Source: a virus (lineage: Duplodnaviria; Heunggongvirae; Uroviricota; Caudoviricetes). Taken from it: a stretch of 38,662 nucleotides of DNA. The DNA lies in the IMG/VR virus record IMGVR_UViG_2695420482_000015. The stretch is one strand, 5' to 3'. Shown one piece after another: positions 1 to 19,844 of this stretch (the first letter of the stretch is position 1; every line of letters begins with the position of its first letter). A model generated the notes under the pieces. It worked only from the letters and a program-made list of their open reading frames with translations, ran no database searches and was not told the origin of the DNA. Made by a program: the position numbers and the translations under genes.

Positions 1-1518
1 TCATTCACCCTCCTGATGCGTGGTAGCGGTCCCATTGAAGGGCAAAATAAAATCCCCCAAACAGAAAACAGATTCTTCAGCGACGTAAATAAGCTGACCG
101 TTCAAGCGCAGTGAAACGGGCGCAGAAGTTCGAATCGCAATACGCTGCGCGTCGAGAGTGACCTGTAATTCGCAGCCCTGCCAGAACAGAGGGAAAGACA
201 ACTGTTGCCACTGCTCAGGTAACGCCGGATTGAGATGTAATTCACCGTCACGCACGCTCACCCCGGCAAAACCCTGAATCGCCCCCAGCCAGATAGCGCC
301 AGTTGCGGCAGCGTGGGTACCGTCATCACAGCTATGTGGATCAGCACCAAGATCGATTTCAGTCCCCTCGCGCCAGAACTGATAACTTTGGGTCAGCAGG
401 CCACAGCGTGCGGCAACAATGCCGTGGATTGCTTTACTTAATGACGAGTCGTGAATAGTGCGCGGTTCATAAAATTGCAGATAGGCAAGACACGATGCCG
501 CTGAGAACTGCTCCGGCAGCATGTAATTGAGCATCACCACATCAGCTTGTTTGAGGATCTGCATCTCGTTCACTTCTGCGCGTGAATAATCCAGCAGAAT
601 GGTTTGCTTCCCCGCCGCCGCTTTGTATTTCGCCAGATTAATCACCGGCTTAGCCATAAACGAATCATCCTGCGGCAAAACGCCGTCGGGCTGAATTTCT
701 GGCAGCCGCAGTTCTTTGAGGTACATTTCTGCACGATGAATAAACGCGTCGTCGCTACAGCCAAACTGACGAGCGATATTCAGCGCCTGCTGGACGTTGT
801 AATACGCCATATAGCTGGTGAAGGCGTTATTATTGACATGTTCGGTATATTCGTCTGGCCCAATAACATCATGAATTTCCAGACGGTCGTTAACCCTCAC
901 CGCGCGGCTAATCCAGAACTTTGCCGTCTCCAGAAGTAGCGCCATGCCTTCATGAGCAATGAAACTTTCATCCCCCGTGGTCCGCCAGTATTGAATAACC
1001 GCCCAGGCGATATCGGCCACCAGATGATGTTCCGCCTGCGCAGAGGCCACTTTTTGCCGCAACCCGGTACGAATGTTAATGGCAGCAAATTCCGGCGTCT
1101 CTTCTTCGCCGCTACGCGCGCTTTCCCACGGAAATAGCGCGCCCTGCCAGCCGTTGCGTCGCGCTTTCTCCTGCGCGCCAGGCAAGTTGTGCCAGCGATA
1201 ACGCAGTAAACTTCGGGCAACCATCGGATCGCTAAACAGATGGAACGGTAGCAAAAATACTTCTGTATCCCAGAAAACGTGGCCTTTGTAGCCTTCGCCG
1301 GTTAAACCTTTCGCCGCAATGCTGCTGCGCTCATCGTGGGCAGGCGTCATGATGCGCAGGTGATAAAGCGCATAATCTAACGCTTGCTGATCGTGCGCAT
1401 CGCCGCCGTTTACCGTGATACGACGTTTCTGCCACCATTGACGCCAGTTTTCTGTTGATGCTGCAAGAAGTTGGTCGTAACTCTGCTGCGCGCTGATGCG
1501 CCGCGCGATAAATGCACT
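1..1518 (-). CDS. ycjT: GH65-family glycoside phosphorylase (kojibiose phosphorylase YcjT-like), C-terminal ~505 codons; gene interrupted by prophage insertion
   Basis: ORF 1..1350 translation has GH65 catalytic-domain character (GHVFWDTEVF motif). The same frame stays open upstream to ~1518 with plausible protein sequence, then stops at the prophage junction. N-terminal ~250 codons are absent from the window. Symbol is from memory of the E. coli protein, not a search. Confidence 0.7.
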   Translation of the reverse strand, partial: SAFIARRISAQQSYDQLLAASTENWRQWWQKRRITVNGGDAHDQQALDYALYHLRIMTPAHDERSSIAAKGLTGEGYKGHVFWDTEVFLLPFHLFSDPMVARSLLRYRWHNLPGAQEKARRNGWQGALFPWESARSGEEETPEFAAINIRTGLRQKVASAQAEHHLVADIAWAVIQYWRTTGDESFIAHEGMALLLETAKFWISRAVRVNDRLEIHDVIGPDEYTEHVNNNAFTSYMAYYNVQQALNIARQFGCSDDAFIHRAEMYLKELRLPEIQPDGVLPQDDSFMAKPVINLAKYKAAAGKQTILLDYSRAEVNEMQILKQADVVMLNYMLPEQFSAASCLAYLQFYEPRTIHDSSLSKAIHGIVAARCGLLTQSYQFWREGTEIDLGADPHSCDDGTHAAATGAIWLGAIQGFAGVSVRDGELHLNPALPEQWQQLSFPLFWQGCELQVTLDAQRIAIRTSAPVSLRLNGQLIYVAEESVFCLGDFILPFNGTATTHQEGE

Positions 1519-1571
1519 CTATCTTGTGCGATAAATGGCATCCACGCGGCGTTTCATTATTTGAAAAAGAA

Positions 1572-2144
1572 TTACATTTCAGGTTGCGTTATGACAGTCC
1601 CAACAGGGTGATAGCGGTAGATCGTTGACAGTCCAATATCATAGATAATTGCCAGCCGCTTTCTGTCATACCCTTTCTGGAGCAATCTTGCGATCTGCTC
1701 ATGCTGCTCCTTCGTCAGTTTCGGGCGACGTCCTCCAACTCTTCCTTGTGCTCGCGCAGCAGCCAGTCCAGCCAGCGTGCGCTCAACTATCAGTTCACGC
1801 TCCATTTCTGCCAGTGCACCCATCATATGAAAAAAGAACCTTCCCATCGGAGTGCTGGTATCGATTGAATCCGTCAGACTGCGAAAATTGACACCTTTTG
1901 CGCGTAGCTCTTCTGTGAGAGCAATGAGGTGTTTCATTCTTCTACCCAACCGATCCAGCTTCCAGACCACCAATGTATCCCCTCTTTTAAGGCACTTTAA
2001 AGCGCGTTTCAGGCCTGGTCGTTCCGACTTGGTTCCGCTCATTTTGTCCTCAAAAATCTGTTCACATCCTGCGCACATTAATGCATTGCGTTGCAAATCT
2101 GTGTTTTGGTCATTTGTTGACACACGTATGTAGCCAATCAGCAT
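1572..2144 (-). CDS. gin: Serine DNA invertase (Gin/Hin/Pin family)
   Basis: Translation from internal Met (MLIGYIRVSTNDQNTDLQRNAL...) matches Mu Gin almost residue for residue at the N-terminus, including the catalytic serine context and C-terminal HTH. Lies next to the invertible fibre segment. Confidence 0.95.
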   Translation of the reverse strand: MLIGYIRVSTNDQNTDLQRNALMCAGCEQIFEDKMSGTKSERPGLKRALKCLKRGDTLVVWKLDRLGRRMKHLIALTEELRAKGVNFRSLTDSIDTSTPMGRFFFHMMGALAEMERELIVERTLAGLAAARAQGRVGGRRPKLTKEQHEQIARLLQKGYDRKRLAIIYDIGLSTIYRYHPVGTVITQPEM

Positions 2145-2200
2145 TAAAAATACTCCCTTTTGAGTGGTTAAAGTACTGAGATAATGTGGGGAGGATTTGA

Positions 2201-2224
2201 GAGATAAACGTTGGTTTAGGAGAA
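2201..2224. other. gix/hix-like inversion crossover site (gin-proximal)
   Basis: gagataaacgttggtttaggagaa; its reverse complement ttctcctaaaccaacgtttatctc matches the site at 4174..4199 (shared core ttctccNaaaccaaNgt) and resembles gix/hix half-sites (AAACC..GGTTT). Confidence 0.7.
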
Positions 2225-2713
2225 GCGGCGAAAAGGGATGTGGGCACGACAGTCGGAACCGTTGCCGCTGGTGATGATTTACGCATAATAGGAGCACTTC
2301 AAAAGGCAAATAATCTTTATGAGTTAACAAATAAATCTGACGCAAGAGCTAATCTTGGGTTAGGAACCGTTGCAACAAAAAACGTGGGAAATAGTGCTGG
2401 GCAAATACCTGATATGTCTTACTGGTCTTCCGTATCGGGTGGCGTTAATTTCCCTAATGGATTCCAGATGCGATTCGGTGCTATCGCTGGTAATGGTGGA
2501 AAATTATTTTCTACGCCATTTACAAATCAGTGCTATGGCATTGTTTTCGGACAAACATATGTAGCCAACTACTGGATGTTCAGCCCGATGTACAGAGCAT
2601 CTGATCTGAGTAATACCGGTTTTGCATTCATTAACAAAACCTGGTCTGGCGTTCCGGGGACAGGTGCTCAGGACGCTGGTGAATCAGTTTTTTATATTGC
2701 AGTAGGGTATTAA
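2213..2713 (+). CDS. Alternate tail fibre C-terminal domain (S'v-like, promoterless; expressed only after inversion)
   Basis: Frame is open from the crossover site (…NVGLGEAAKRDVGTTVGT…) with no proper start of its own. Sits inside the invertible segment and is followed by a tail fibre assembly gene. Confidence 0.6.
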   Translation, partial: GLGEAAKRDVGTTVGTVAAGDDLRIIGALQKANNLYELTNKSDARANLGLGTVATKNVGNSAGQIPDMSYWSSVSGGVNFPNGFQMRFGAIAGNGGKLFSTPFTNQCYGIVFGQTYVANYWMFSPMYRASDLSNTGFAFINKTWSGVPGTGAQDAGESVFYIAVGY

Positions 2714-2714
2714 T

Positions 2715-3158
2715 ATGGAAATGGTTTATAGCGCCTCAAATAATAGTTTTTTCGCTAAAAATGATGTGGCGAAATATGAACAGGCCGGATGGGAACTTGC
2801 TGATATTGTCGAAGTGACATATGACACTTACCTGGAATTTATTGAAGACAGAACGTTGCAAGGGAAAGTACGCATCGCGGGTGATGATGGCCTTCCCACC
2901 TGGGGGGAAATTCCACCGCCAACTCATGAGGAACAAATTGCCGCAGCCGAACTGGAAAAGCAGCAATTGATTAATCAGGTCAACGAATACATATACAGTA
3001 AGCAATGGCCTGGTAAAGCAGCGATTGGTCGCCTGAAAGGTGAGGAACTGGCGCAATATAATTTGTGGCTGGATTATCTGGACGCACTGGAACTGGTCGA
3101 TACTTCCGGTGCGCCAGATATTGAATGGCCTACGCCTCCGGCAGTTCAGGCCAGATGA
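2715..3158 (+). CDS. Tail fibre assembly protein (alternate, U'-like)
   Basis: 147 aa; C-terminal motif NLWLDYLDALELVDTSGAPDIEWPTPP is typical of Tfa chaperones and parallels the C-terminus of the 3130..3723 protein. Confidence 0.8.
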   Translation: MEMVYSASNNSFFAKNDVAKYEQAGWELADIVEVTYDTYLEFIEDRTLQGKVRIAGDDGLPTWGEIPPPTHEEQIAAAELEKQQLINQVNEYIYSKQWPGKAAIGRLKGEELAQYNLWLDYLDALELVDTSGAPDIEWPTPPAVQAR

Positions 3159-3723
3159 CGTCCGGCGCTGTGCTGGTATCTGTTGCCGTCACCGCGTCAA
3201 TATAATCCAGCACAGCGTTAAGTCGGGTGTTTTCTGGCTGCGTCAGCTTCCGCCCGGCCTGTAATTTCAGTTGAATCAGACTGATGGAAGCCATTGCAGC
3301 ATCAATCAGCGACTGGCGCTGTGCTTCTGCAGCTTCTACTGCGGCGCTATGCTGTGCCTCGGTATCCGTCACCCATTTCTCACCATCCCATTTATCGTAT
3401 GGCGTTAACGGTGAAAGCGTGACATAACCGTCTTTGATGGCACCGATATAATCCACTGTAACAGCTGCGCCATTTTCAGTTGAGTAAACGGTCTCATTGC
3501 GATGGTCTTCTTCATGGCTCCATCCCTTACCCGTAAATACTGCCACTCTTCCCGGAATGTATTCGCCCGGGTCAATACCAGTGGAACAAACGGGCATACT
3601 TACGCCAGTATTAATATATTCATCAGACCAGCCCGTATATTCAGACGTTACTGCATCATAATAATAACAACGCATATCACCCGGCACTGTAGCCAGCCCA
3701 TTTTCATCAAAAACAGGTTTCAT
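3130..3723 (-). CDS. Tail fibre assembly protein (U-like)
   Basis: 197 aa; C-terminal NAVLDYIDAVTATDTSTAPDVIWPELP Tfa motif; immediately downstream of the fibre gene. Confidence 0.8.
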   Translation of the reverse strand: MKPVFDENGLATVPGDMRCYYYDAVTSEYTGWSDEYINTGVSMPVCSTGIDPGEYIPGRVAVFTGKGWSHEEDHRNETVYSTENGAAVTVDYIGAIKDGYVTLSPLTPYDKWDGEKWVTDTEAQHSAAVEAAEAQRQSLIDAAMASISLIQLKLQAGRKLTQPENTRLNAVLDYIDAVTATDTSTAPDVIWPELPEA

Positions 3724-5177
3724 TATGCAGCCCTCACAATATAATTAAAGGCGATGTTACGTGGACGGTTTTCATTAGCTGTTGGCACGACACGAGAGGC
3801 GTCGAATCCAAGGTCATCGGTTTTGCCTATATCAGTTGTGTTATTCGGCATTCTCGCAGATCGTGTTCCTGCATCATAAAAAGCCCCTCTGATTGCATCA
3901 AAAGACATACCGATCCCGCCATCTGCGAATCCCTCAATATTTCTTATTGCATCCCCCTGTGAAGATAATAATTGTCGCCCGGCATCCACACCACGTCCGT
4001 CATCCCAGCCACGAATAAATTCACCGCGTAAATCCGGCAATTTATTTGTCGGATAAACCTTTGCCAGTTCCGGGTATTCTTCAGCAGAAAAAGCCGCACC
4101 GTTGCATTTCAGCCAGCCAGTAGGCGGTGTGGCTGAAGGCCACGGAACAGGCACACCAACGGGTAATGCCGAACCTTCTCCCAAACCAAGGTAATTGAGG
4201 ACATCTTTTATACTGCCCTTAGCGATAATAGCGCGACCAATAGCTGTAAGGGTTGCCAGCTCTGCGCGGTCTGCTCCGGTAAAATAAGGCAACCGATCTG
4301 CTGCAGTGGCAAGTCCTGCCAGAGCAGTGAGCGTGGCATCTGCCGGTTGTTTTCCGTTTGCCAGATCGTATGCAGCCTTGACCGCTTTCGGTGTGGCGGC
4401 CAGTATTTCAGACGTGCTGTTGATGGCACTGCTCAATTGTACGGTGCCTTTTGCCGTCAGCGAGGCAGCAGGCACTCCCGTTATCTGACTCCACGGGTGA
4501 GTGTGGCTGACGGGCGCCTTGCCGGCTGCAAGGTCGTATGCAGCCTTGACCGCCTTCGGCGTGGCAGCCTCAGTTTCTGATTGACTGTCCGTGGCGCTGC
4601 TCAGTTGTACGGTGCCTTTTGCCGTCAGCGAGGCAGCAGGCACTCCCGTTATCTGACTCCACGGGTGAGTGTGGCTGACGGGCGCCTTGCCGGCTGCAAG
4701 GTCGTATGCAGCCTTGACCGCCTTCGGCGTGGCAGCCTCAGTTTCTGATTGACTGTCCGTGGCGCTGCTCAGTTGTACGGTGCCTTTTGCCGTCAGTGAA
4801 GCCGCAGGCACTCCCGTTATCTGACTCCACGGGTGAGTGTGGCTGGCAGGCGCCTTGCCGGCTGCCAGGTCGTATGCAGCCTTGACCGCTTTTGGTGTGG
4901 CGGCCAGCGTTTCAGAGGTGCTGTTGGTGGCACTGCTCAGTTGGGTGAACCCCTTAGCTGTCAGTGTCGCGTCCGGGTGGTTACGGGAACGTACGTGTTC
5001 AGCCAGTGACTGTGCGGCTTCCTCCGTTTTCTTCTTCAGCCATTTCGTCCTGTTTGCCAGTTGCCGGGGGGCTCGATTTGATATCCCGTCTGCACCACCC
5101 AGAACCGGATCTGATGTCTCCAGTTGATAGATATTTTCTTCCCACTTTTCTGTTTCATTCAGGTTTCCCATAATCAA
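3723..5177 (-). CDS. Tail fibre protein (S/H-like), constant N-terminal part plus invertible C-terminal part
   Basis: 484 aa with four tandem 56-aa fibre repeats (…ATPKAVKAAYDLAAGK…SHTHPWSQITG…). The gix-like site lies within the coding sequence. Confidence 0.9.
   Translation of the reverse strand: MIMGNLNETEKWEENIYQLETSDPVLGGADGISNRAPRQLANRTKWLKKKTEEAAQSLAEHVRSRNHPDATLTAKGFTQLSSATNSTSETLAATPKAVKAAYDLAAGKAPASHTHPWSQITGVPAASLTAKGTVQLSSATDSQSETEAATPKAVKAAYDLAAGKAPVSHTHPWSQITGVPAASLTAKGTVQLSSATDSQSETEAATPKAVKAAYDLAAGKAPVSHTHPWSQITGVPAASLTAKGTVQLSSAINSTSEILAATPKAVKAAYDLANGKQPADATLTALAGLATAADRLPYFTGADRAELATLTAIGRAIIAKGSIKDVLNYLGLGEGSALPVGVPVPWPSATPPTGWLKCNGAAFSAEEYPELAKVYPTNKLPDLRGEFIRGWDDGRGVDAGRQLLSSQGDAIRNIEGFADGGIGMSFDAIRGAFYDAGTRSARMPNNTTDIGKTDDLGFDASRVVPTANENRPRNIAFNYIVRAA
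4174..4199. other. gix/hix-like inversion crossover site (inside tail fibre gene)
   Basis: ccttctcccaaaccaaggtaattgag, in inverted orientation to 2201..2224. Falls on the LGLGE codons of the fibre; the alternate cassette carries VGLGE at its site. Confidence 0.7.
4296..4967. repeat. Tandem 168-bp repeats (about 4 copies) encoding 56-aa tail fibre repeats
   Basis: Near-identical DNA copies with period 168 seen directly (e.g. acggtgccttttgccgtcag at ~4441 and ~4609); flanking copies are more diverged. Confidence 0.8.
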
Positions 5178-5752
5178 CTGCTCCCGTGGTTATAACTGCC
5201 ATCATGGATGGCGGTATTGTTATAGCGAATGGCCACAGACTGATACTCCAGGCTGGCCAGATGGCAGCGGGCCGGTGCAAATGCAGCCAGCGTCTGACGC
5301 AGCATCGCGGCCTGATCGTTAGTAATGGGCTGTTTCAGAATAACGCGATAAACTGCCCAGGCGGCTGCATCTCCATGAACAAACAGTCCGTTATAGCTGC
5401 GATTGCCGTCGTAACTGAGACGACCTGTGCCTTCAATCAGATCCACTTCACCAAAGCCAAAACGGCGGATAACTTCCCGGATTGACCACGGCGTCCCTTT
5501 ATACCGGTGCAGTTCGATGGCTGCTTTTATAAGCATGCGGCGAACATCGTCCGATTCCGCCAGCTCCCAGCCATCGCCAGACAGTGAGAACTGCTCGCCC
5601 AGCCATGGCAGCGCGGAACTGTCGACGATATCGACGAGAAAGACCATCAGTACGCTCAGGTCGATGTTATCCAGCCGTCCTGCCAGTCTTCCCAGCGTCC
5701 TGAGACTGATATCACCCTCAAGCGGTGGCGGGAGTTGTAATGGCTCAGTCAT
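5174..5752 (-). CDS. Tail protein, P2 gpI-like
   Basis: 192 aa; position after baseplate J-like gene and before fibre; sequence character of gpI family. Confidence 0.7.
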   Translation of the reverse strand: MTEPLQLPPPLEGDISLRTLGRLAGRLDNIDLSVLMVFLVDIVDSSALPWLGEQFSLSGDGWELAESDDVRRMLIKAAIELHRYKGTPWSIREVIRRFGFGEVDLIEGTGRLSYDGNRSYNGLFVHGDAAAWAVYRVILKQPITNDQAAMLRQTLAAFAPARCHLASLEYQSVAIRYNNTAIHDGSYNHGSS

Positions 5753-6848
5753 CAGACACTCCAGTCATGTTAAGAGTGATTGCCGTACAGTTTGCCCATT
5801 CGTTTTCTGCCACCACCCGCAGTGCCGGTGTCACCAGTTCAACCTGGTACACCCCGGAAACGGACAATGCACTGATAATCTGGCTGGGGACAATATCGCG
5901 CCCCAGCGTGGCGGCACGTGATGCCACCCAGTTCTGTATGGCGCTGTTAGCGGCATCTTTTACAGACCTGGCATCCTGATCACGATAGATCGTAATCCTG
6001 GCTTCAATGGTGTAATCCACCTTCACTGGTGTTTTAGCCCGCACTGTATCAGTGAGTGGCCTGACTTTCTCATCAGAGCAGAAACTCTCTACCAGCGTGA
6101 GAACACCGCCGTCCGGCAGACCGGTACTGAGCAGCGGATACAGATCTACGGTCCCGGGAACCGGGGAAAGCACAGCAACATCGACAATGTTGGGATGGGC
6201 CTGCATGGCATGAAAGCGGTATGCGCCACGGCTTCCGGCATTGGTGAATGACTCCGGGGCCAGCCTGATACGCTCCCGGAGCCTGTCATCGTCTTCCTGT
6301 TCTGAACCGCCGGAACTGGCCGTCAGATTGCTCACCAGCAGGTCGACGTTATCAATCTCATCGAGTAACTGACTGACCTGCGCAGGTTGCCAGCCGTTAC
6401 CAGCGGTACCGGGTTCGGTACAGGTGGACGTGACATTGACCAGCAGCAATCCGGCCTTCAGTACCACATCTGTATCGGTGGCAAAAATAACGCTGTCGGA
6501 AGCGCTGACGCGGGTGCCTGCCGGGATCAGCACATCAATGGCCAGTGCCTCATCTACGGAGAACTGGAGCGTGGTAGTGGCAGGCTGCGCGGCAAGACGG
6601 TATACACCGACCAGTTCACCGAGGTAATCAATCATCGGCTCACGGGCAAAGGCGACCAGATTCTGCTTTGCTGCCTCCTGTACCGCAACCCTGACCAGCA
6701 TTTCGCGATAGGCCCACAGATCAATCAGCAGACGTTCTGCCTGTGCCGGGTACAGCGTTTTGCCGGTATCCGCTTCATACTTCGCAATCATTTCTGCCGT
6801 GATTTTGTCGGCATCGCGTTCAATAAAATCGGGTTCTGTCAGCGCCAT
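5745..6848 (-). CDS. Baseplate protein, P2 gpJ-like
   Basis: 367 aa; baseplate J-like sequence and synteny (W-J-I-H). Confidence 0.8.
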   Translation of the reverse strand: MALTEPDFIERDADKITAEMIAKYEADTGKTLYPAQAERLLIDLWAYREMLVRVAVQEAAKQNLVAFAREPMIDYLGELVGVYRLAAQPATTTLQFSVDEALAIDVLIPAGTRVSASDSVIFATDTDVVLKAGLLLVNVTSTCTEPGTAGNGWQPAQVSQLLDEIDNVDLLVSNLTASSGGSEQEDDDRLRERIRLAPESFTNAGSRGAYRFHAMQAHPNIVDVAVLSPVPGTVDLYPLLSTGLPDGGVLTLVESFCSDEKVRPLTDTVRAKTPVKVDYTIEARITIYRDQDARSVKDAANSAIQNWVASRAATLGRDIVPSQIISALSVSGVYQVELVTPALRVVAENEWANCTAITLNMTGVSDD

Positions 6849-7186
6849 AGCAGCTCCTGAGTCCGGGTCTGTCCGTCTGAGCCTTTCCAGCTCACCCGGA
6901 GCGTAAGATGTTCGCCGTCGACGGCGGGTTTAACTGACATAAGCTGGCAGCGGGGCTCCCAGCGCCGGATGGCATCGACGGATTCGCGCACCACATGCGG
7001 AATGGCCCGGTCTACAGGCCAGTCGATATAAAGATGCAGATTGCTGCCGAACTCCGGGCGATGCGGGTCGCTGCCGCGGGGAGTCCGCAGGATAATTTGA
7101 ATCGCCTGCCGGATATCATCCAGCCCCCGGACAATTTCGCCGGGAGCCTGCAGGGTCGGTTGCCAGAATACTGAGGTTGTTTTCAT
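6839..7186 (-). CDS. Baseplate wedge protein, gpW/gp25-like
   Basis: 115 aa; size and sequence typical of GPW/gp25; synteny. Confidence 0.75.
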   Translation of the reverse strand: MKTTSVFWQPTLQAPGEIVRGLDDIRQAIQIILRTPRGSDPHRPEFGSNLHLYIDWPVDRAIPHVVRESVDAIRRWEPRCQLMSVKPAVDGEHLTLRVSWKGSDGQTRTQELLWR

Positions 7187-7240
7187 GGGGGCAGTATTGC
7201 CCCCGTGCGGGAACGCTGATATTAAAGGCGTTTAAAAAGC

Positions 7241-7837
7241 TCAGTGGGAGTGGTGGCTGGAGTTTTCGCCATCAGACAACATACTGCCCGTGGCATGGGC
7301 ATTCCCTTTAATCTCGATATTGCCATGGATGGTCGCGGTAACACCTTCACCACCAGAACCCGCCATGCCTCCTTCGTAAATCAGCTTACCCCTGACACGC
7401 AGATCTCCGGTAAGTTCGGTTTCCGGTGCGTCAATCGTGGCTTTCTGTGTTTTCAATACCACATCAGCACCACACTCAATGACAATATGCTCAATGCCGC
7501 CCCGGATGGTCAGAGTGTGCGTCTTCCGGTTGTAGCTGTACTCTGCACCATCAGCAAACCGGGTTCCCCGGATATTTTTGTCACTGAACGGTGGTTTATC
7601 GACGTCTGAATACACCGCGCCCAGAATAACACCATCCTCGCCGTTGGCATCGAGCAGCACCTCAACCTGCTCCCCCACGTCAGGGAGCCAGTAATCTTTG
7701 TTATCCTGGGTATTGCGCTGCAGCACGTTAAGCCAGTTTGTGCGCAGGTTATCGCATTCAGGCAGACGAACGCGGGCCTGAACCCTGTCGGCATCAACGG
7801 CACTGACCGTACCGACCTGACGAGTGACACCAGTCAT
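7241..7837 (-). CDS. Baseplate assembly/spike protein, P2 gpV-like
   Basis: 198 aa; gpV-like N-terminal OB region and glycine-rich C-terminus; synteny. Confidence 0.75.
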   Translation of the reverse strand: MTGVTRQVGTVSAVDADRVQARVRLPECDNLRTNWLNVLQRNTQDNKDYWLPDVGEQVEVLLDANGEDGVILGAVYSDVDKPPFSDKNIRGTRFADGAEYSYNRKTHTLTIRGGIEHIVIECGADVVLKTQKATIDAPETELTGDLRVRGKLIYEGGMAGSGGEGVTATIHGNIEIKGNAHATGSMLSDGENSSHHSH

Positions 7838-8988
7838 TTTTTCTTCTCCTTAATCACCGTCGATGTACTGCCATCCGGGTGATAAACCGTGAGTTTCTGA
7901 GTTTTTTGTTTTTTCCCTCTTGTGACTGGCCCCCGTGCCACTTCCAGCTCTGTGGTGTAGCCGCTGTTACGGTCAAACGCATGGCGGGCAGTGGTTATGA
8001 GCCATGGCCCGGATAACTGCCCAAAACCCACCAGTTCAATTTTGTTGCCTGCTGTCAGTTGAGGTGTTCCCGTCAGCGTCAGGGAGCCGTTCTGCTGGTA
8101 TTCGTTATGTCTGGCCAGTGCTGAATCCGCTTTAATCCGGGCACTGTCCGGGTCGCTGACGCGGCTGTTAACTTTAAGTGAGTCAGCGCTGGTAACCTTA
8201 CCACCTTTGAGCTTTTTGTCGCTTTCACGGGTACCACCATCAGCTTCGTAGACGATCAGTTTTTTACTGCTGCTTTTCTGGTGTTTTACCTTTGCAGATT
8301 TATAGACCCGGTTGATGGTGTCACGCAGGGAAAAGCGGGCCACATCCTGCGGTTTTAACTGCCTGACCGGCTCCTGACTGCGCAGTGTGGCCAGATGAGA
8401 AAAAATCAGCTGGTCACTGACCACTTTCACTGCATAACCATACTCGCTGGCCAGCCGGCGCAGAAAACCCACGTCGGTTTCAGCATACTGGGTCACCCGG
8501 TCGATTCTGATGGACTCAATGCTGCCCACCAGTTTCAGTCGGTGCTTTCTGGCAATCCGCCCCGCAACAGCTGCCAGCGTGGTGTTCTCAAAACCACGAC
8601 TGGTTTTAGTCCGCAGGGCACTGTTAACCGAGGTGGCCACCCCACGGATAGAAACAACGGAAGCGGGCGAACTCACTTCGATCTCGTCTATAGAGAACGT
8701 ACCGCAGGACAGCAGCTTCTCGCCCTGATAGCCCATTTTCAGCGTCAGCGTGTCACCCTTGCCCGGATACCATTTATCCAGCCAGCGGCCATCGGTGTCG
8801 TCCAGCTCCACCTCAATGGTATCGGACTCATTTTTGATGTTATCGCTCCAGGTCACACGGGTGACATAAGGCGCGATATCAGAGGTGATGTTTTTCTGCA
8901 GATACCACAAAGTGAACACCGGTGTCAGCACATCGCTGACGCCGGTTAACGCTGATGTGACTTGCGCAGTGCTGTTTATCTCAGCCAT
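7834..8988 (-). CDS. Baseplate hub, late control gene D protein-like (Mu P / P2 gpD)
   Basis: 384 aa; gpD-family character; follows the gpX-like gene. Confidence 0.8.
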   Translation of the reverse strand: MAEINSTAQVTSALTGVSDVLTPVFTLWYLQKNITSDIAPYVTRVTWSDNIKNESDTIEVELDDTDGRWLDKWYPGKGDTLTLKMGYQGEKLLSCGTFSIDEIEVSSPASVVSIRGVATSVNSALRTKTSRGFENTTLAAVAGRIARKHRLKLVGSIESIRIDRVTQYAETDVGFLRRLASEYGYAVKVVSDQLIFSHLATLRSQEPVRQLKPQDVARFSLRDTINRVYKSAKVKHQKSSSKKLIVYEADGGTRESDKKLKGGKVTSADSLKVNSRVSDPDSARIKADSALARHNEYQQNGSLTLTGTPQLTAGNKIELVGFGQLSGPWLITTARHAFDRNSGYTTELEVARGPVTRGKKQKTQKLTVYHPDGSTSTVIKEKKK

Positions 8989-9191
8989 GGGGCAATATCC
9001 TCTTCTGTACGGGCTTCTTCAGCCTCAATCACCGGGATCAGTAACAACAGCCCGGAGGGCAGCACCGGCGTGATGGCCACGTGCGGATTGGCGGCAATAA
9101 TCCGGGGATAGCCCAGCGGGTCACCGTAGTACTGCCATGCCAGCGAATCCCAGCGCTCTCCGTCACGGGTAACATGTTCAAGAAACATCAC
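8976..9191 (-). CDS. Tail protein X-like (LysM-like)
   Basis: 71 aa (…WDSLAWQYYGDP…); small gpX-like protein between gpU-like and gpD-like genes. Confidence 0.7.
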   Translation of the reverse strand: MMFLEHVTRDGERWDSLAWQYYGDPLGYPRIIAANPHVAITPVLPSGLLLLIPVIEAEEARTEEDIAPWLR

Positions 9192-10072
9192 ACACTCCTC
9201 GTCAGTATTCTGGCGGCCATTGCACTTAATCCCGGAGACATGCGGTTGAATGCTGTGCCGGCGGCGTTAAGCTGCCCGGAAACGGTATCCAGAGCACCTG
9301 CAATATTTCTTTTGTCCACACCACTCAGCGCAGACTGTGCCTGCTGTACATACGTGGCTGCTTCGCTGGCTGTTCTGGCCAGACTGATGGCATCGGGCAT
9401 GGATTCAGAGAGTGCGTTAAACGCCGGAACACTTTTCCCCAGAGCCCCGGAGATATTACCCAGTCCGCTCATCAGCCCCGGCACACGGGTCAGTGCGACA
9501 ACGGGGTTATCCTTCATTTTCTGTGTCACCCGAACGGCGCTGATAGTGGTCTGGAGTACAGACTGCGCCTGTTTCGCATAGTTGACGCCGTTGCGGATGA
9601 ACTGCGCCACCCCTGAAGGTGAAGGTATGGCACCGGAGACCGCCCCGACACCCGGGAGCTTCGTGCGTATTGCCGGTGGTTGCAGAGGATTTTTCGGGTC
9701 ACCGGTGTATTCCCGGAGAGACACGGTGGCACTGACAGCCAGCACGTTGCCGGTACTGTCAGTCTGCTCGCTGGTTGCAGTCACATCGGTAATCACGAAC
9801 CAGCCGCGATAGTCACCGTTGCCGAAGACCAGCGCCAGTGCCTGATGGGCTTTCATGGCTGTTCGCAGTCTCGCCAGCTCCACATCGGGTACACAATAAT
9901 GCTGATGGAAAACCAGAGTTATCTGGATTTCGTCCAGCCTGTCGCCGACGAACTGCAGGCCAGGCTTACCCCCGATGCGGGCATGCTCCGCATAATCGAC
10001 GCCGAACGTGGCCTCGAAGCCGTCCCAGTAGGTAATCAGCTCAAACTCAATATCACCCAGTACGGCAAACAT
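9188..10072 (-). CDS. Tail protein, P2 gpU-like N-terminus with C-terminal extension
   Basis: 294 aa; N-terminus MFAVLGDIEFELIT… resembles gpU-family tail proteins; immediately downstream of tape measure. Confidence 0.65.
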   Translation of the reverse strand: MFAVLGDIEFELITYWDGFEATFGVDYAEHARIGGKPGLQFVGDRLDEIQITLVFHQHYCVPDVELARLRTAMKAHQALALVFGNGDYRGWFVITDVTATSEQTDSTGNVLAVSATVSLREYTGDPKNPLQPPAIRTKLPGVGAVSGAIPSPSGVAQFIRNGVNYAKQAQSVLQTTISAVRVTQKMKDNPVVALTRVPGLMSGLGNISGALGKSVPAFNALSESMPDAISLARTASEAATYVQQAQSALSGVDKRNIAGALDTVSGQLNAAGTAFNRMSPGLSAMAARILTRSV

Positions 10073-12762
10073 CAGCGGTACTCCTTACGTTGTTTCTGAG
10101 CCAGCAGACGCTCCAGCATTTTTTCCAGCTCATGCAGACTCATATTCAGGGCACCAGTCAGTCCTGCAGGCGCTGTGGTTTCCCTGCCATTGAGGAAAAA
10201 CTGAGGATTAAAGCTGACCTGGATACCACCAGACGTTCCACCGCTGGTTGCAGCTGCACCACGGCCTGAATATCCGGCAGCCAGGATTTCAGGCGAGGGG
10301 ATACGGGGAACATCCGGTGTCATCTCATTTGCCAGACGTTGCCCTGGTAAAATCGATGCCCGGGTGGAGAGCGGAATAGCGGGCATGGAAGACAAACTAT
10401 TGATTACGGCTCCGATCGCATTTTTAGCAGACGACATAAACCCATTGATATCGGGCAACGGCATACTGAAGCGAACACCTGAAGTGTTATCCCGTATTTC
10501 TGGCCCCTGGATGCTCACGGGCATTCTGGGGAGCAGTTCACTGGCCATTCGCTGCCCGGCCAGAGCTGCAAGCGGAGTGGTCCGCTGCAGGCCAATGGCG
10601 GCCCCCTGCGCGATATTGTCACCAAAGCCCATAAACACGCGGCTCGGCGAATGAATGCCCAGCTTTTCGCTGAACCAGCCACTGATGCTGTCACCCATTC
10701 CGGTTACACTGGATTTGAGCGACTCCCATTTGTTTTTGATACCGTTAATCAGACCATCGACAAGATGGCCACCGAAGTCGGTAAACTTTGCCGGCAGATC
10801 AACACCAAGATATTTCAGCGCAGCTGCAAAGGCTTTATAGAGCAGGCCTGCCGGCGACCAGTTAATCAGTAACTTACCAATTCCCACAATGCCGCCGTTA
10901 AAGGCTTCCTGAATGTCTGCCCAGCGCTGTTTAAACCAGCCACTGACTGCCCCCCAGTTGCGGTAGATAAGGTAAGCTGCTGCCGCGACAGCGGTGATAA
11001 CGAGACCGATGGGATTCATCATCAGCGCACGTCCAATCCAGAGAACAGCACGTCCGGCGAGCATAATTCCGCGAACCAGCCCCTCGGAGAGCACGCCACT
11101 CAGTGTTCTGGCTCCTCTGGCGACGGCGCTAAATCCGGTCACCAGCCAGCGGAGCTTACCGCCTTGCCCCAGTGCGAGCGACAGACGAAGCCAGTTGGCC
11201 CGAAGTAAAACAGCATTTTTCCAGACACTTACAAAGGGGGAAATAAGGAGATTCAGCCCCAGTTTGAGACCAACAGTCGCTATCTTAATCGCAAGGAGCG
11301 CACTGATGAGCTTAAAAGCCCCACTGACAAATTGCGGGTGAGTCGCTACCCAGTGTTTTGCCCCCTGAATGAGTGGAAGCAGTTCCTGAGTCAAAGAAAT
11401 AAAAGATGGAGCTAATTGATCGCCCAGCGTAATTGCCAGATCGCGACTGCTGACCATAAGTGTTTTAGTGGCTTCAAGGGGAGATTTCAGCCGCTGATCA
11501 TAAGCACTGGCAAGCAAATCGTTATCCGCAGCCCTGAGAGCACCGGCACGGATCTCTCGATATCTGTCCATGTTGGCCAGCATCGGGCGGATAAATGCCA
11601 TGACCTGCATATCCGCGAACATATCGCCCAGACCAAAGTTTTTCGCCAGAGCCTGAAGTGCCTCATCTCTTGCCGTATCATTCTTTATTTTCATGGCTGA
11701 TTTGAAGCCGGCCAGCGCTTCGGGGCTTTTGGCATTGAGGTAACGTTCTATAACACTCAACATCCCTTCAATCGGAGAGATCCCCGCAGCTTTATAACTC
11801 GCAATAGATCCCTGCAAATCAATACCCAGATCAGCAAACTGTTTCTGAGTATCGCGGGCAAAAATTTTGGTAAGAAAGTTTTTAAAATTATTGGCTGCTT
11901 CGTCGGTGGAACCTGCACCGATTTTTGCTATCTGGAGACTGGCCCCGATTTCAGCAACAGCCTCTTTTCCACTGGCAATACCCGCCATCATTGGGGCCAG
12001 GGACTGCATCCACTTGACCTGATCCGGGATTTCAAATGACCCCTGGTCACCGGCATAAGCCATAATATTCTGAACGGCACCAAAATCTCTGGCCGCACCT
12101 TTCAGGGAGTTTTGCCAGACTGCGGCCACTTTTGCCCAGTCCTGAGCAGACGTGCGTGTTGCCGTTGCCGCGCGGGCAATATCCGGCATCAGAAAACCGA
12201 TATCTGACACATTATCAATATTGTCGCTGATGAGTGAACCCACCGCCTCCTGCAGCTCATCCTGATACTGATTGTATTTAAGCGCCCAGCCTTTTATCTG
12301 TCCGGCAAGTCCATCCCGCGTTTTATTGTCATATTTTGCGGTGATCGACATATCAATCATTTTGTCCTGAAAAGACATGGACTGCTGAACGGCAGGGGAA
12401 ACCGTATGATAAACAGTCTGTGCCATGCCATACGCTTCAATCCCCTGACCATACAGCGCCATGCGGTTAGCTTTCAGCGCATCACTGGTAGCGGATGCCG
12501 CTGACAGACGGCGCTGCTGGCGCTCAATTTGCTCCATGGTGCGGCTTACCCGCAGCAGCTCGCTGTTGAGATGCTGCATCCGGGAAGAACCCAGTTGACC
12601 ATAACGTTCTGTTGCACGGGTTAAAGCGTTCTGACGTTCCTGCAGGCGGCGTGAGGTATCGCTCAGGGAATCAAGCGCACGGCGGGTACCGCTCATTGCA
12701 GAACGGAATGTGCTACCAATCATCCCGCCGATAACAACGCCGACTGAAAACTGTCCCGACAT
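10072..12762 (-). CDS. Tail tape measure protein
   Basis: 896 aa, helical/coiled-coil rich with hydrophobic central segments; follows the tail chaperone pair. Confidence 0.9.
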   Translation of the reverse strand: MSGQFSVGVVIGGMIGSTFRSAMSGTRRALDSLSDTSRRLQERQNALTRATERYGQLGSSRMQHLNSELLRVSRTMEQIERQQRRLSAASATSDALKANRMALYGQGIEAYGMAQTVYHTVSPAVQQSMSFQDKMIDMSITAKYDNKTRDGLAGQIKGWALKYNQYQDELQEAVGSLISDNIDNVSDIGFLMPDIARAATATRTSAQDWAKVAAVWQNSLKGAARDFGAVQNIMAYAGDQGSFEIPDQVKWMQSLAPMMAGIASGKEAVAEIGASLQIAKIGAGSTDEAANNFKNFLTKIFARDTQKQFADLGIDLQGSIASYKAAGISPIEGMLSVIERYLNAKSPEALAGFKSAMKIKNDTARDEALQALAKNFGLGDMFADMQVMAFIRPMLANMDRYREIRAGALRAADNDLLASAYDQRLKSPLEATKTLMVSSRDLAITLGDQLAPSFISLTQELLPLIQGAKHWVATHPQFVSGAFKLISALLAIKIATVGLKLGLNLLISPFVSVWKNAVLLRANWLRLSLALGQGGKLRWLVTGFSAVARGARTLSGVLSEGLVRGIMLAGRAVLWIGRALMMNPIGLVITAVAAAAYLIYRNWGAVSGWFKQRWADIQEAFNGGIVGIGKLLINWSPAGLLYKAFAAALKYLGVDLPAKFTDFGGHLVDGLINGIKNKWESLKSSVTGMGDSISGWFSEKLGIHSPSRVFMGFGDNIAQGAAIGLQRTTPLAALAGQRMASELLPRMPVSIQGPEIRDNTSGVRFSMPLPDINGFMSSAKNAIGAVINSLSSMPAIPLSTRASILPGQRLANEMTPDVPRIPSPEILAAGYSGRGAAATSGGTSGGIQVSFNPQFFLNGRETTAPAGLTGALNMSLHELEKMLERLLAQKQRKEYR

Positions 12763-12837
12763 AGTGGTTAACCTCCGGGGAAGGTGAAAAGACGTGAGGG
12801 GATAACGCAGAACAGCCGCTACTGGCGGCTGTCTGTA

Positions 12838-13095
12838 CTATGATTTGTCGCCGTACTCGCTTTTTATTTGCTCTTCAGCCTGCTCCAGCCACATCTCCAG
12901 ATCGTCAGTATCGAGGGCATCAATCTCCCCCGGCTGAAACCGGAACCATCTCGCCAGCAGCCCCTGCGCCTGCGTCAGCGCCCTGGTTGCTCTCACCCAT
13001 CCCCGTGATGAGCTGAAATCGTTTCTGTAACTGCAGGTAATCAGCCAGATCCATATTGTCGAGATCTTCCGGGAGAAGACCAGTACTGCGGGCAA
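12838..13095 (-). CDS. Tail assembly chaperone frameshift extension (GT-like C-terminal domain)
   Basis: 85-aa ORF overlapping the chaperone 3' half in the +1 (equivalently -2) frame, with acidic C-terminus ending 75 nt before the tape measure start; matches the conserved chaperone frameshift arrangement. Confidence 0.55.
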   Translation of the reverse strand: MPAVLVFSRKISTIWIWLITCSYRNDFSSSRGWVRATRALTQAQGLLARWFRFQPGEIDALDTDDLEMWLEQAEEQIKSEYGDKS

Positions 13096-13255
13096 TCAGC
13101 GGTTCGTCCCAGTCTGCCGGGTTTTTGCTGATTTTGCGCACCTGCTTCAGGTCTTTTACCGTCAGGCGTTTCAGTTCAACCTGCTCAATTCTGGTGCCTG
13201 CAGCAGTGGTGAAGGGATAAGACAATTTAAAAGTATCGGATGGGGTCTGTGACAT
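12920..13255 (-). CDS. Tail assembly chaperone (G-like), upstream frame
   Basis: 111 aa ORF between tail tube and tape measure; overlaps a second ORF in another frame. Confidence 0.7.
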   Translation of the reverse strand: MSQTPSDTFKLSYPFTTAAGTRIEQVELKRLTVKDLKQVRKISKNPADWDEPLIARSTGLLPEDLDNMDLADYLQLQKRFQLITGMGESNQGADAGAGAAGEMVPVSAGGD

Positions 13256-13314
13256 GATTGTGCTCCTGTGTAAGTTCAGGGCAGTATGTCGGGAGAAGCG
13301 CGTGACGGATATTA

Positions 13315-13346
13315 AAGGAGATTAAGAAGAAGGGGCCGGAGCCCCT
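13315..13346 (-). terminator. Putative intrinsic terminator after the 93-aa gene
   Basis: GC stem aggggc-cgga-gcccct followed on the minus strand by TTCTTCTT, directly after the stop at 13353. Confidence 0.4.
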
Positions 13347-13352
13347 GTGATG

Positions 13353-13634
13353 TCAGCAAGTGCGAAACCCCTTGCAGTTACGCAGGAAAGCGATGAGAAG
13401 CGTCTTTCCCTCAGATTTGCCGGTGCCGGAGAACCAGTGGTCGGGAGGCTCCCATGCTTCAATCAAATCCGCCAGTTTGCGGGCCTTTGAACGTGTGCAG
13501 TCAATCGGGTCATTGGTTTTACGGGTATTAAAAAGGGTTTCCACCCCCGGAATATCAAGGAGGGTAAACCACGTACCATTTGACATGCCCAGTGCCGCAC
13601 ATCGTCCTCCTTTATCCGTCAGTTCAACACTCAC
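13353..13634 (-). CDS. Hypothetical small Cys-containing protein (possible moron) between tail tube and chaperone
   Basis: 93 aa ORF, no recognisable family; followed by a terminator-like hairpin. Confidence 0.45.
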   Translation of the reverse strand: MSVELTDKGGRCAALGMSNGTWFTLLDIPGVETLFNTRKTNDPIDCTRSKARKLADLIEAWEPPDHWFSGTGKSEGKTLLIAFLRNCKGFRTC

Positions 13635-13636
13635 CG

Positions 13637-14158
13637 TCAGCCCCCGATATTGATACGGTAGTCAGTCAGTTGATCAACACCGCCGACCCGGAAGATGTTG
13701 GCCAGATAGTCCAGTTGCAGCAGCTCTTCACCATCCAGTACCTGTCTGATATACGTGCAGGTGAAGCTACTGGAGAACTCGGCGTTCTCGTGCTGTTTGA
13801 ACGTCCCCAGCGGGTTCTTCTTGAACATAATCGTCAGGAAGGTGACCAGCGGGATTTCGTCAATCAGCCCCTGCGAGCTGTAGCGCTGGACGCTGGAACG
13901 ACACTGCAGTGCCAGCGACCTGTACGGGTTCGCGGCAGACAGCATCGCATCGCGGTAAAAGCTGTTCCATTTGATTTCGCCTTCCAGTTTGTCAAAACCA
14001 GCCGGGAGTTCCACCTTACCCACCATCCCCAGCGCCTTGTGTTCCTGCATAATCATGGAGACATCGGGGAGTTTAACTTCCTCAGCCCGTCCCAGCAGGT
14101 TAGTACCATCCAGATAGATGTTGGCATTCGTGATGCGGTTTATCTCAATCTTTGACAT
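13637..14158 (-). CDS. Tail tube protein (Mu M-like)
   Basis: 173 aa; directly downstream of the sheath gene; contractile-tail tube size and sequence. Confidence 0.85.
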   Translation of the reverse strand: MSKIEINRITNANIYLDGTNLLGRAEEVKLPDVSMIMQEHKALGMVGKVELPAGFDKLEGEIKWNSFYRDAMLSAANPYRSLALQCRSSVQRYSSQGLIDEIPLVTFLTIMFKKNPLGTFKQHENAEFSSSFTCTYIRQVLDGEELLQLDYLANIFRVGGVDQLTDYRINIGG

Positions 14159-15585: not shown

Positions 15586-15829
15586 GGGTGTCCTCCGTTT
15601 TCACTTCGCTGTCACTGCTGCTTCTGCGCTTTGGTGACTGCACAGCCGGTGTGCCGGCGGGTTTAGTCTCTTCAGGTACCGGCGTCAGATGTTTCAGCGC
15701 CACCAGTACCTTCACGTAGTCATGCTCCTCCGGCAGGGAAACCGTCTTCCCCGGCCAGAGCAGGATTTCGGTTCCGTCCGACAGCGTGACGCCGCTGGCC
15801 GGGCCGGAATAGCGGTATTCTTTCATCAC
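15575..15829 (-). CDS. Mu gp38-like small protein
   Basis: 84 aa; conserved position between head-completion genes and sheath. Confidence 0.55.
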   Translation of the reverse strand: MMKEYRYSGPASGVTLSDGTEILLWPGKTVSLPEEHDYVKVLVALKHLTPVPEETKPAGTPAVQSPKRRSSSDSEVKTEDTHGS

Positions 15830-16290
15830 TCGCTTTCCTCATAGTTCACTTCGGTTAACAGCGGGCCGGACGGTAAATCGCTGTCTTCGATAAAGACGCT
15901 TTCAGTCGCGAAGTCGAGGGCGTACTGCCACAGCCCCCTGACTTCACCGATAAACACCTCGCGGGTCAGCCAGATACGGCGGCGGCAGCCGGGCGGGGTG
16001 TGGCCACCGAGAATGCGGCGGACAGCATCCAGGACATTAATCGCCCCTTTTTTACCGTTGAGCTGGCGGAAGACCACCGTGACGCAGAGCTGGATAGTCT
16101 GAGACTGGATCACCGCACCGGTATCATCCGGCCTGTCAAAGCGCGAACCGGCATAGCTCAACAGCAACGCGCCAACCGGATGGTTCAGGCGATATTCAGC
16201 CGGTTTCTCCGGGAAGTACTCCACCTGCAGTTGCGGCAGCTTCTCGCGTAACCGGGCCAGTACCGCATCAAGGACGGGCAGAACGTTCAT
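15826..16290 (-). CDS. Mu gp37-like head-tail connector/completion protein
   Basis: 154 aa; synteny with Mu gp36-38 block. Confidence 0.6.
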   Translation of the reverse strand: MNVLPVLDAVLARLREKLPQLQVEYFPEKPAEYRLNHPVGALLLSYAGSRFDRPDDTGAVIQSQTIQLCVTVVFRQLNGKKGAINVLDAVRRILGGHTPPGCRRRIWLTREVFIGEVRGLWQYALDFATESVFIEDSDLPSGPLLTEVNYEESE

Positions 16291-16736: not shown

Positions 16737-16737
16737 G

Positions 16738-17076: not shown

Positions 17077-17085
17077 AACGCCTCC

Positions 17086-18039: not shown

Positions 18040-18053
18040 GCTCTCTCCTTAAA

Positions 18054-19842: not shown

Positions 19843-19844
19843 TG

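Follow-up and report, generated by a model that had tools for sequence, protein, structure and literature searches.

Does the segment of about 2 kb between a serine recombinase gene and the constant part of a tail fibre gene in this E. coli prophage still flip, and does its inversion exchange the tip of the fibre? All coordinates below refer to the window, i.e. the whole stretch of 38,662 nt that was analysed. We put the probability at roughly 90% that the right end of the prophage carries a functioning site-specific inversion switch of the Din family (Gin/Cin/Pin/Hin-type). Switches of this kind are known, with precedents in Mu, P1 and e14, and the same system has already been published for a sister prophage, Phi2.

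The prophage and its invertase

BcepMu-like phages encode an rve-type DDE transposase, an AAA+ transposition ATPase, Gam and Mor, and are found inserted at varied chromosomal sites. The switch lies at the right end of an E. coli prophage of this transposable, BcepMu-like type, which is inserted in ycjT. Pfam searches identified rve, AAA_22, Phage_Mu_Gam and Mor domains in its proteins, and PHROGs searches identified a transposase (PHROG 310) and a member of PHROG 296. The early and late regions are divergent, and relatives are located at aroA, sufB and ygcQ; the features of a Bcepmuvirus-type element were thus found in the window, which does not include the left end and the target duplication. 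As the first-pass annotation had proposed, the transposase is not of the MuA type: it possesses the rve integrase-core domain only (1e-8), with no Mu transposase domains, and the nearest phage record (PhiKM, 98.7% identity) is classified as Bcepmuvirus. The PhiKM record is a partial genome that ends at the right crossover site and lacks gin, and it is uninformative on orientation. The region 1400..5400 is mosaic: neither the phages nor the complete E. coli genomes searched include a match of 80% coverage, so the source strain is absent from both sets.

Members of the Din family (Gin/Cin/Pin/Hin/Min) are small (~185-195 aa) serine recombinases that combine an N-terminal resolvase catalytic domain, whose catalytic Ser is found near position 9-10, with an HTH at the C-terminus; the prototypes show mutual identity of about 60-80%. 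They act on 26-bp sites in which a 2-bp core separates two imperfect half-sites of 12 bp, and their systems include a Fis-binding recombinational enhancer in cis, in the 5' part of the invertase gene. In the window, the gene at 1572..2144 (minus strand; 'gin'), transcribed away from the invertible segment, encodes an intact protein of 190 aa with Resolvase (8e-51) and HTH_7 (1e-12) domains, which was assigned to PHROG 125 (DNA invertase, 1e-94). The catalytic-serine motif YIRVSTNDQ is present, and the MLIGYIRVSTNDQ motif aligns with Gin, Cin and Pin. The protein is 73% identical to Mu Gin, 72% to P1 Cin and 76% to e14 PinE, the prototypes being 75-82% identical among themselves. Size, domain composition, catalytic Ser and mutual identity are thus those of a Din-family recombinase. 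The earlier label "Gin" is loose, since the protein shows much the same identity (72-76%) to each of Gin, Cin and Pin. No amino acid difference separates it from the invertases of EC958 Phi2, JJ1886, HSP60 and 025542-1. A PADLOC scan gave no match for gin; among the cargo genes it returned a methyltransferase match and a weak KwaA match, and nothing else.

A putative Fis-dependent recombinational enhancer may be placed at 2055..2126 (minus strand), i.e. gin nt 19-90, the same position as the enhancer annotated in P1 cin, to which this stretch is 75% identical (whole gene: 65%). A match to the Fis consensus, GCGCAGGATGTGAAC, is located at gin nt 71-85, and Mu, P1 and e14 have one in the same place. 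By analogy with these systems, the switch in the window is predicted to depend on Fis and the enhancer.

Crossover sites and the two fibre isoforms

We searched the 38.6-kb window with the consensus pattern of Din-family crossover sites (TTCTCNNAAACCAANGTWW, at most one mismatch) and found exactly two matches, at 2206..2224 (minus strand) and 4176..4194 (plus strand). The expected number of chance matches was 0 in 100 shuffles, and the same pattern recovers the sites of Mu, P1 and e14. The left 26-bp site (2199..2224, minus strand; TTCTCCTAAACC-AA-CGTTTATCTCTC) adjoins gin and consists of an outer half on the gin side (2199-2210), the central dinucleotide (2211-2212) and an inner half (2213-2224). 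The right 26-bp site (4176..4201, plus strand; TTCTCCCAAACC-AA-GGTAATTGAGGA) lies within the fibre gene, with its inner half at 4176-4187, the central dinucleotide at 4188-4189 and the outer half, on the constant side, at 4190-4201. The two sites are in inverted relative orientation and have the identical AA core. The first-pass annotation had recognized both of them, with ends that were off by 2 nt (2201..2224 and 4174..4199). From the core of the left site to the start of gin there are 67 nt, as in Mu and e14. The left outer half is identical to that of the published EC958 site Phi2_3prime (GAGAGATAAACGTT|GG...), and the right outer half to that of Phi2_5prime (TCCTCAATTACCTT|GG...); thus CGTTTATCTCTC, which fits the half-site consensus poorly, has an identical counterpart reported for EC958 Phi2. 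The limits of homology fall at the same places: similarity to four other prophages or plasmids bearing other cassettes breaks off at 2225, and on the right side the cassette homology with other loci runs out at 4192. When up to two substitutions were allowed, no further credible site emerged from the window; the additional matches, at 7844, 19829 and 20005, are not set in the AAACC context of the core and were rejected as sites. A generic inverted-repeat search did not list the site pair, because it needs an exact seed of 9 nt and the sites share only 7-nt seeds.

The segment between the gix-like sites comprises two convergent tip/chaperone cassettes, an arrangement noted in the first-pass annotation and on which the pattern search and the Pfam assignments agree. 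The constant N-terminal part of the fibre (4190..5171, minus strand; about 328 aa) has four stretches of Phage_fiber_2 repeats (2e-73), encoded by 168-nt tandem repeats (direct-repeat family D1), and 413 nt of it are 100% identical to the ST131 Phi2 fibre gene. The fibre gene, earlier read from TTG 5177, is itself upheld, with its start most likely at ATG 5171 (GGGAG Shine-Dalgarno) instead. It runs into the currently expressed variable C-terminal tip (3723..4187, minus strand; 154 aa, GLGEGSALPVG...), which contains a Phage Tail Collar domain (Pfam, 1.7e-14) and is 60% identical to e14 StfE. The U-like assembly chaperone of this tip (3130..3723, minus strand; 197 aa, Caudo_TAP 3.7e-27) is 63.5% identical to e14 TfaE. 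The expressed-tip cassette is found beside the same gin, in opposite orientation, in 153 E. coli records (best match: 96.5% identity, 100% coverage). Records L003 and L004 belong to this group.

The silent alternative tip (2213..2713, plus strand; 166 aa, GLGEAAKRDVGT...) is a start-less ORF that reads through in the same frame as the GLGE codons; it does not require its own start codon, and inversion has to precede its expression. Pfam and NCBIfam assign it to no family, whereas PHROGs places it in PHROG 1396 (tail fibre, 1e-25), and an 80%-identical homologue carries the NCBI label "gp53-like domain-containing". Homologues with 88-94% identity are joined to full fibre N-termini elsewhere (P0004-P0008). 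The corresponding U'-like assembly chaperone (2715..3158, plus strand; 147 aa, Caudo_TAP 1.5e-29, PHROG 188) starts 1 nt past the stop codon of the tip (TAA-T-ATG) and is 55% identical to e14 TfaP over 105 aa. The two chaperone genes share 29 nt at their 3' ends, an overlap also seen in e14 and SKA5, and the two tips are unrelated in sequence.

At both sites the central dinucleotide forms positions 2-3 of the Leu/Val codon that precedes GLGE, and the GLGE codons are carried by the inner half-site. With the crossover at the L/V-GLGE codons, inversion therefore yields an alternative fibre in frame. When the segment was flipped in silico, the fibre ORF stayed unbroken (496 codons from TTG 5177, equal to 494 aa from ATG 5171); the present fibre has 482 aa from the same ATG, and a Caudo_TAP gene is located downstream of both isoforms. 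The earlier proposal of an in-frame fusion of the alternate tip at the conserved GLGE codons is thus borne out by the in-silico inversion.

Both orientations and their possible origins

The inverted form of this very segment was found in a public E. coli assembly. Nucleotides 1..1832 of contig JAMCAZ010000148.1 (L009) are collinear with the in-silico inverted window (98.0% identity), whereas the alignment with the window as given splits at the site. The protein P0005 encoded by this contig reads ...KDVLNYLGLGE|AAKRDVGTTVG..., which is the predicted junction of the silent tip with the window's own constant part, so the in-frame fusion that had been anticipated for the inverted isoform is seen in a natural sequence. 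The contig was identified by a protein search followed by contig look-up; a chimeric junction query in complete genomes was empty, and the inverted junction (alternative tip with this constant part) is accordingly absent from 5,426 complete E. coli genomes and present in one draft contig only. The first-pass annotation had named two observations that would speak against inversion. One of them, the lack of an inverted orientation, is thus contradicted; the other, an inactive gin, does not refute the switch, as the ORF is intact and the identical invertase is present in EC958 Phi2, which shows both orientations.

Sister prophages supply the crossover point. The Phi2 prophage of JJ1886 differs from that of JJ1887/EC958 by an inversion of 2047 nt, the inverted alignment starting at the left central dinucleotide and extending 3 nt beyond the right one into shared bases, and the inner half-sites, which are polymorphic (TTCTCCT and TTCCCCC), have exchanged partners between JJ1886 and JJ1887. 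The two Phi2 junction types are represented by 327 and 181 complete genomes. For EC958, PacBio sequencing revealed both orientations of Phi2, with alternative-orientation contigs from one DNA preparation and the same 26-bp sites listed, and about 50% mixed orientation of Phi1 within one culture (Forde 2014, PMC4134206). These data fall short of strict proof that this very enzyme is active, because other EC958 invertases could have acted on Phi2 in trans. Taken together, L009, the sister prophages and the published Phi2 reads document that both orientations exist and, for the sister prophages, that the crossover falls in the core, and they suggest that the segment would also switch in the source strain.

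Could the locus be a relic that descends from an inversion system but no longer flips, with the silent cassette as dead cargo? A weak left site, the absence of gin expression or a defective prophage could all lead to such a state, and it would agree with the single orientation seen in the window, the poor consensus match of the left outer half-site, the complete genomes without the inverted junction and the annotation of the ST131 Phi2 fibre gene as fragmented pseudogenes. We nevertheless regard it as quite improbable, given that the intact invertase ORF does not differ from that of the switching Phi2, that the ORFs for the silent tip and the accompanying chaperone are open and 92-94% identical to copies in expressed positions elsewhere, and that another strain carries the same segment inverted. 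It is extremely improbable, in our opinion, that the two orientations are due not to the invertase but to homologous recombination by RecA, or to an exchange of modules among different phages within conserved fibre sequence. The inverted homology between the two sites of the window amounts to ~15/26 bp, far below what RecA needs, although the sites of Phi2 do lie within inverted repeats of ~214-227 bp with 96% identity, a length sufficient for RecA, and cassettes have clearly been traded among unrelated phages with breakpoints at the sites. Even in Phi2, comparison of JJ1886 with JJ1887 reveals that the entire repeat arm moves with the segment and that the switch falls between site positions 7 and 15, i.e. 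in the core; the about 50% mixture of Phi1 in one culture and the alternative Phi2 contigs from one preparation also fit a site-specific enzyme (PMC4134206).

A different role has been described for e14, where StfE2, formed after PinQ-driven inversion of the P segment, blocks the adsorption of other phages (PMC12529663). The switch in the window might likewise serve the lysogen, with the fibre-tip protein of one orientation blocking the adsorption of other phages; besides this published precedent, the fact that the closest relatives of the cassettes are e14 P-segment genes (StfE 60%, TfaE 63.5%) argues in this direction. However, the late operon that includes the fibre gene is complete and the transposable prophage itself appears intact, which makes host-range switching of the virion the simpler reading; a role in the lysogen would presuppose expression of the fibre gene there. 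We therefore consider a primary role in defence of the lysogen very improbable, even though it would be compatible with the main explanation.

Proposed mechanism and implications

In the functioning inversion switch that we propose, dimers of the 190-aa serine invertase would bind the two inverted 26-bp sites, probably assisted, by analogy, by Fis on the enhancer in the first ~90 nt of the invertase gene. Both sites would be cut at the central AA/TT dinucleotide, and the DNA would be rotated and religated, resulting in a flip of ~1.98 kb. In each orientation the 328-aa N-terminal shaft would be joined in frame, at ...NYL|GLGE..., to one of the two unrelated tips, each tip gene being followed by its own assembly chaperone gene; since transcription of the fibre gene starts on the constant side, the shaft is the same in both cases. 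A lysogen population could then produce two kinds of virions with different receptor specificity, and the switch may thereby alter the host range.

The significance of the locus beyond annotation is little. The switch accounts for breaks in short-read assemblies, such as the truncation of PhiKM at the site and the appearance of L009 as an orphan contig of 1.8 kb, and start-less database entries of 157-179 aa termed "phage tail proteins" correspond to silent cassettes. It adds one further combination of cassettes to the ST131 Phi2-like prophages, a family that is widespread in E. coli and whose host range is probably bimodal or multimodal, which is relevant wherever these prophages or their fibres are employed in typing or phage engineering. 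BcepMu-like transposable prophages and a P1-like plasmid have in common both the invertase (0-1 aa difference) and the Sv/U cassette; this cassette is also present in SKA5, a phage of the integrase type, where the neighbouring invertase is a different one (50% identity), and homology among the cassette-sharing elements breaks exactly at the sites. One could speculate that the site and the invertase form a portable junction, which moves tip/chaperone cassettes among unrelated elements, and that one orientation in the lysogen might also provide a receptor-masking defence like that of e14 StfE2; we regard this combined view as unlikely.

Relationship to known inversion systems

The Mu G segment follows the same logic as the segment in the window, with Sc joined to Sv or Sv' and accompanied by U or U'. 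It is also located at the right end of a transposable phage; its gin lies beyond the segment, at the same distance of 67 nt to the core, and contains the enhancer in the 5' coding region. It differs in its length (3 kb) and in the gix core, which is GA and not AA, and the Mu tips and chaperones have little or no similarity to those of the window, the sole match being 31% between chaperone C-termini. With an rve-only transposase and tips that match neither the S nor the S' variable parts of Mu, membership in the Mu G-segment group was rejected. The P1 C segment shares with the window the 26-bp sites, the AA core and a constant fibre part with repeats (38% identity to P1 S), but it is 4.2 kb long, its cassettes are Mu-like and the 3' end of cin faces cixL. 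The P1-like plasmid p702_18_3 carries an invertase that differs by 1 aa from that of the window, together with the same Sv/U cassette in opposite orientation. SKA5 was considered as a carrier of the same segment inverted and was rejected, since the part in common is limited to 2907..4189, the alternative tip is a different one and the invertases are only 50% identical.

Judged by sequence similarity, the cassettes of the window are closest to those of the e14 P segment, not of the Mu G segment. The P segment of K-12 (stfP-tfaP / tfaE-stfE, pinE) also consists of two convergent cassettes of tip and chaperone, its crossover falls on the ...LGLGE codons, its inner half-site (TTCTCCCAAACC-AA) is identical, and its invertase gene is 67 nt from the core and transcribed outward. 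However, e14 is lambdoid and defective, and has a short fibre (~210 aa) and a segment of 1.8 kb, whereas the window contains a 328-aa shaft of Phage_fiber_2 repeats in a transposable, myovirus-type prophage, and its alternative tip has no match to e14 StfP. Phi2 of EC958/JJ1886 (ST131; PMC4134206) belongs to the same prophage family as the window, with nearly identical baseplate and tail genes, an identical invertase protein, identical outer half-sites and a segment of about 2 kb. Phi2 is located beside aroA and has three sites and three tip cassettes within inverted repeats of ~214-227 bp, whereas the prophage of the window, inside ycjT, has two sites, two cassettes and inverted homology of site length only. 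One tip/chaperone pair, that of the alternative tip at 2213..2713, distinguishes the window from Phi2.

Crossover sites and organization of the segment

Direct reading of region 1..6000 and a pattern search of the entire window revealed exactly two matches to the crossover-site consensus of the Din family (Gin/Cin/Pin/Hin-type systems), at 2206..2224 (- strand) and 4176..4194 (+ strand), against 0 expected from 100 dinucleotide-preserving shuffles. The full 26-bp sites are 2199..2224 (-; TTCTCCTAAACC-AA-CGTTTATCTCTC) and 4176..4201 (+; TTCTCCCAAACC-AA-GGTAATTGAGGA), with central dinucleotides at 2211-2212 and 4188-4189, respectively; the first-pass annotation, which proposed a Gin-invertible segment switching the tail fibre C-terminus and its chaperone, had located them to within 2 nt but with inexact ends. 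A generic repeat finder did not list the pair, because the longest exact seeds in the two sites are only 7 nt.

The invertase gene gin (1572..2144, -; 190 aa; Pfam Resolvase and HTH_7; PHROG 125 "DNA invertase", 1e-94) is located left of the left site. Between the sites are a silent fibre-tip ORF that is open from the site onwards (2213..2713, +), two Caudo_TAP chaperones (one of 147 aa at 2715..3158, +; the other at 3130..3723, -) and the Collar-domain tip expressed at present (3723..4187, -). The constant fibre part (4190..5171, -), with four Phage_fiber_2 repeats in 168-nt tandem repeats, is on the right, and P2-I-like and baseplate-J genes lie beyond it. The most likely start codon of the fibre is ATG 5171, preceded by a GGGAG Shine-Dalgarno sequence, and not TTG 5177. 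The shaft repeats at 4351..4964 (three to four in tandem, each of 168 nt or 56 aa, 81-92% identical) correspond to the four Pfam units; their copy number probably differs among relatives, and the fibre has ~537 aa in two compared loci (L001 and L003) versus 482 aa in the window. In public databases the silent tip (2240..2713; proteins P0001 and P0016) is entered as separate ORFs of 157-179 aa, labelled "phage tail protein" or hypothetical, whose assigned starts are an internal GTG or spurious codons upstream; what they represent are start-less cassettes rather than genes.

The inner half-site encodes GLGE, and the core dinucleotide supplies positions 2-3 of the preceding codon, which is Leu on the constant side and Val on the gin side. 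The present fibre reads ...NYLGLGE/GSALPVG... (482 aa from ATG 5171). Reverse-complementing 2213..4187 in silico yielded an unbroken fibre ORF, ...KDVLNYLGLGE/AAKRDVGTTVGTVAAGDD..., ending in VGY and a stop, of 496 codons from TTG 5177 or 494 aa from ATG 5171, with the 147-aa chaperone directly after it. The proposed crossover on the GLGE codons, with in-frame fusion to the alternate tip, is thus borne out.

Inversion in natural sequences

Three independent lines of evidence demonstrate that the inversion is real: the flipped segment occurs in nature, the Collar tip occurs in opposite orientation beside the same gin, and a sister prophage switches. When the silent tip was searched against proteins, a partial E. 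coli fibre (P0005) was found that joins the window's own constant part to this tip, with the junction as predicted for the inverted isoform. All 1832 nt of its contig (JAMCAZ010000148.1; GCA_023370615.1) align to the in-silico inverted window with 98.0% identity, whereas alignment to the window as given is broken in two pieces at the site. In 153 E. coli records the Collar tip occupies the silent position beside the same gin, the best of them aligning in one piece with 100% coverage and 96.5% identity. Homology of the window to four other loci stops at 2225 and 4192, i.e. at the site edges.

The third line comes from Phi2, the sister prophage of E. coli ST131, whose invertase shows 0 aa differences from that of the window and whose outer half-sites are the same. 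A 2047-nt inversion separates JJ1886 from JJ1887 and EC958; the inverted alignment starts at the left core and extends 3 nt beyond the right core, over shared bases. The polymorphic inner half-sites have swapped partners, with gin adjoining TTCTCCT in JJ1886 and TTCCCCC in JJ1887, and the exchange is thereby mapped to between site positions 7 and 15. Complete genomes contain both junction types, 327 having one and 181 the other. The same invertase and sites have been described before, in EC958 Phi2: PacBio contigs from one culture represented both orientations of the 2067 bp segment, and the same 26-bp sites were given (Forde et al. 2014, PMC4134206). The window differs from EC958 Phi2 in its cassette pair and insertion site.

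With three crossover sites and as many tip cassettes, Phi2 (L002 3706..5773; L006/L007 2460..4527) could adopt more than two arrangements, as in Min of p15B. Its fibre gene appears in RefSeq as several pseudogene fragments. The gene may be truly damaged, or the fragments may have arisen artificially from the annotation of silent cassettes.

The host prophage

The left flank (1..1493) matches E. coli ycjT (kojibiose phosphorylase) with 99.9% identity, indicating that the prophage interrupts this gene. The prophage right end, at ~1494, has the sequence TGATGCGCCGCGCGATAAATGCA...; two copies of the motif GCGATAAATG in its first ~50 nt may serve the transposase as binding sites. Relatives that have the same invertase are located at aroA, sufB and ygcQ, as expected for transposition. 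The transposase (31874..33643) has the rve domain only, in agreement with its earlier description as non-MuA, with an AAA_22 ATPase, Gam and Mor encoded after it. The early region (29923..38662, +) encodes a repressor, an IclR-type HTH protein, DUF3102, transposase, ATPase, Gam and Mor, and is divergent from the late genes (-), a BcepMu/B3-type layout unlike that of Mu. The window ends with mor and excludes the prophage left end and target duplication.

Region 5200..30000 is 98.7% identical over 90% to Escherichia phage PhiKM, classified as Bcepmuvirus. This record, the nearest among phages, covers only part of the genome (L005, PQ738613.1); its fibre gene ends just beyond the right crossover site, and the sequence then jumps to early genes (20089..20246). 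It lacks the invertible segment and gin, most likely owing to an assembly break at the switch.

A cargo block (26877..29852) separates the lysis genes from the repressor and is a possible defence or moron locus, comprising a Dam-like D12 methyltransferase (26877..27647, +), a 401-aa membrane protein (27637..28842, -) with only a weak match to KwaA of Kiwa (E 8e-5), and an NA37 nucleoid-associated family protein (28845..29852, -).

Mechanism and alternative explanations

Standard Din-type inversion is the best-supported mechanism, and the initial interpretation of the segment was correct. Invertase dimers would bind the two sites, a Fis-bound enhancer within gin would presumably take part, and cleavage of the 2-bp core would be followed by subunit rotation and religation. 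Either tip could then be expressed with its cognate chaperone, giving two virion types per lysogen. The inversion mechanism has indeed been established for decades, as the first-pass annotation held in calling it a known host-range mechanism; in the window's strain we infer both switching and an effect on host range.

Homologous recombination could in principle yield the same inversion, but is unlikely, as inverted homology in the window is only of site length and the core is where the half-sites were swapped. A relic that no longer flips is also unlikely, given that both cassettes are intact, as is the enzyme, which does not differ from that of a prophage that switches. A defence role at the lysogen level, like that of e14 StfE2 (PMC12529663), is conceivable but finds no support here.

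Comparison with known inversion systems

The window invertase is 73% identical to Mu Gin, 72% to P1 Cin and 76% to e14 PinE. The e14 pix sites have the AA core and the inner half TTCTCCCAAACC in common with the window sites, whereas the core of Mu gix is GA. The e14 cassette genes also resemble those of the window (StfE 60%, TfaE 63.5%, TfaP 55%), unlike the variable genes of Mu and P1, which show little or no resemblance to the window tips and chaperones. As in the window, the convergent chaperone genes of e14 overlap by 29 nt, and in both e14 and Mu the core is 67 nt from the invertase start codon. The stretch of the window gin equivalent to the annotated enhancer of P1 cin is 75% identical and has a Fis-consensus match at the matching position, which is suggestive of a putative Fis-bound enhancer. 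In the P1-like 95 kb plasmid p702_18_3 (L004 366..5814), P1 Cin is replaced by an invertase 1 aa different from that of the window, accompanied by the window's Sv/U cassette (the Collar-domain tip and its chaperone) in opposite orientation; the invertase-plus-site module is thus common to transposable prophages and P1-like plasmids.
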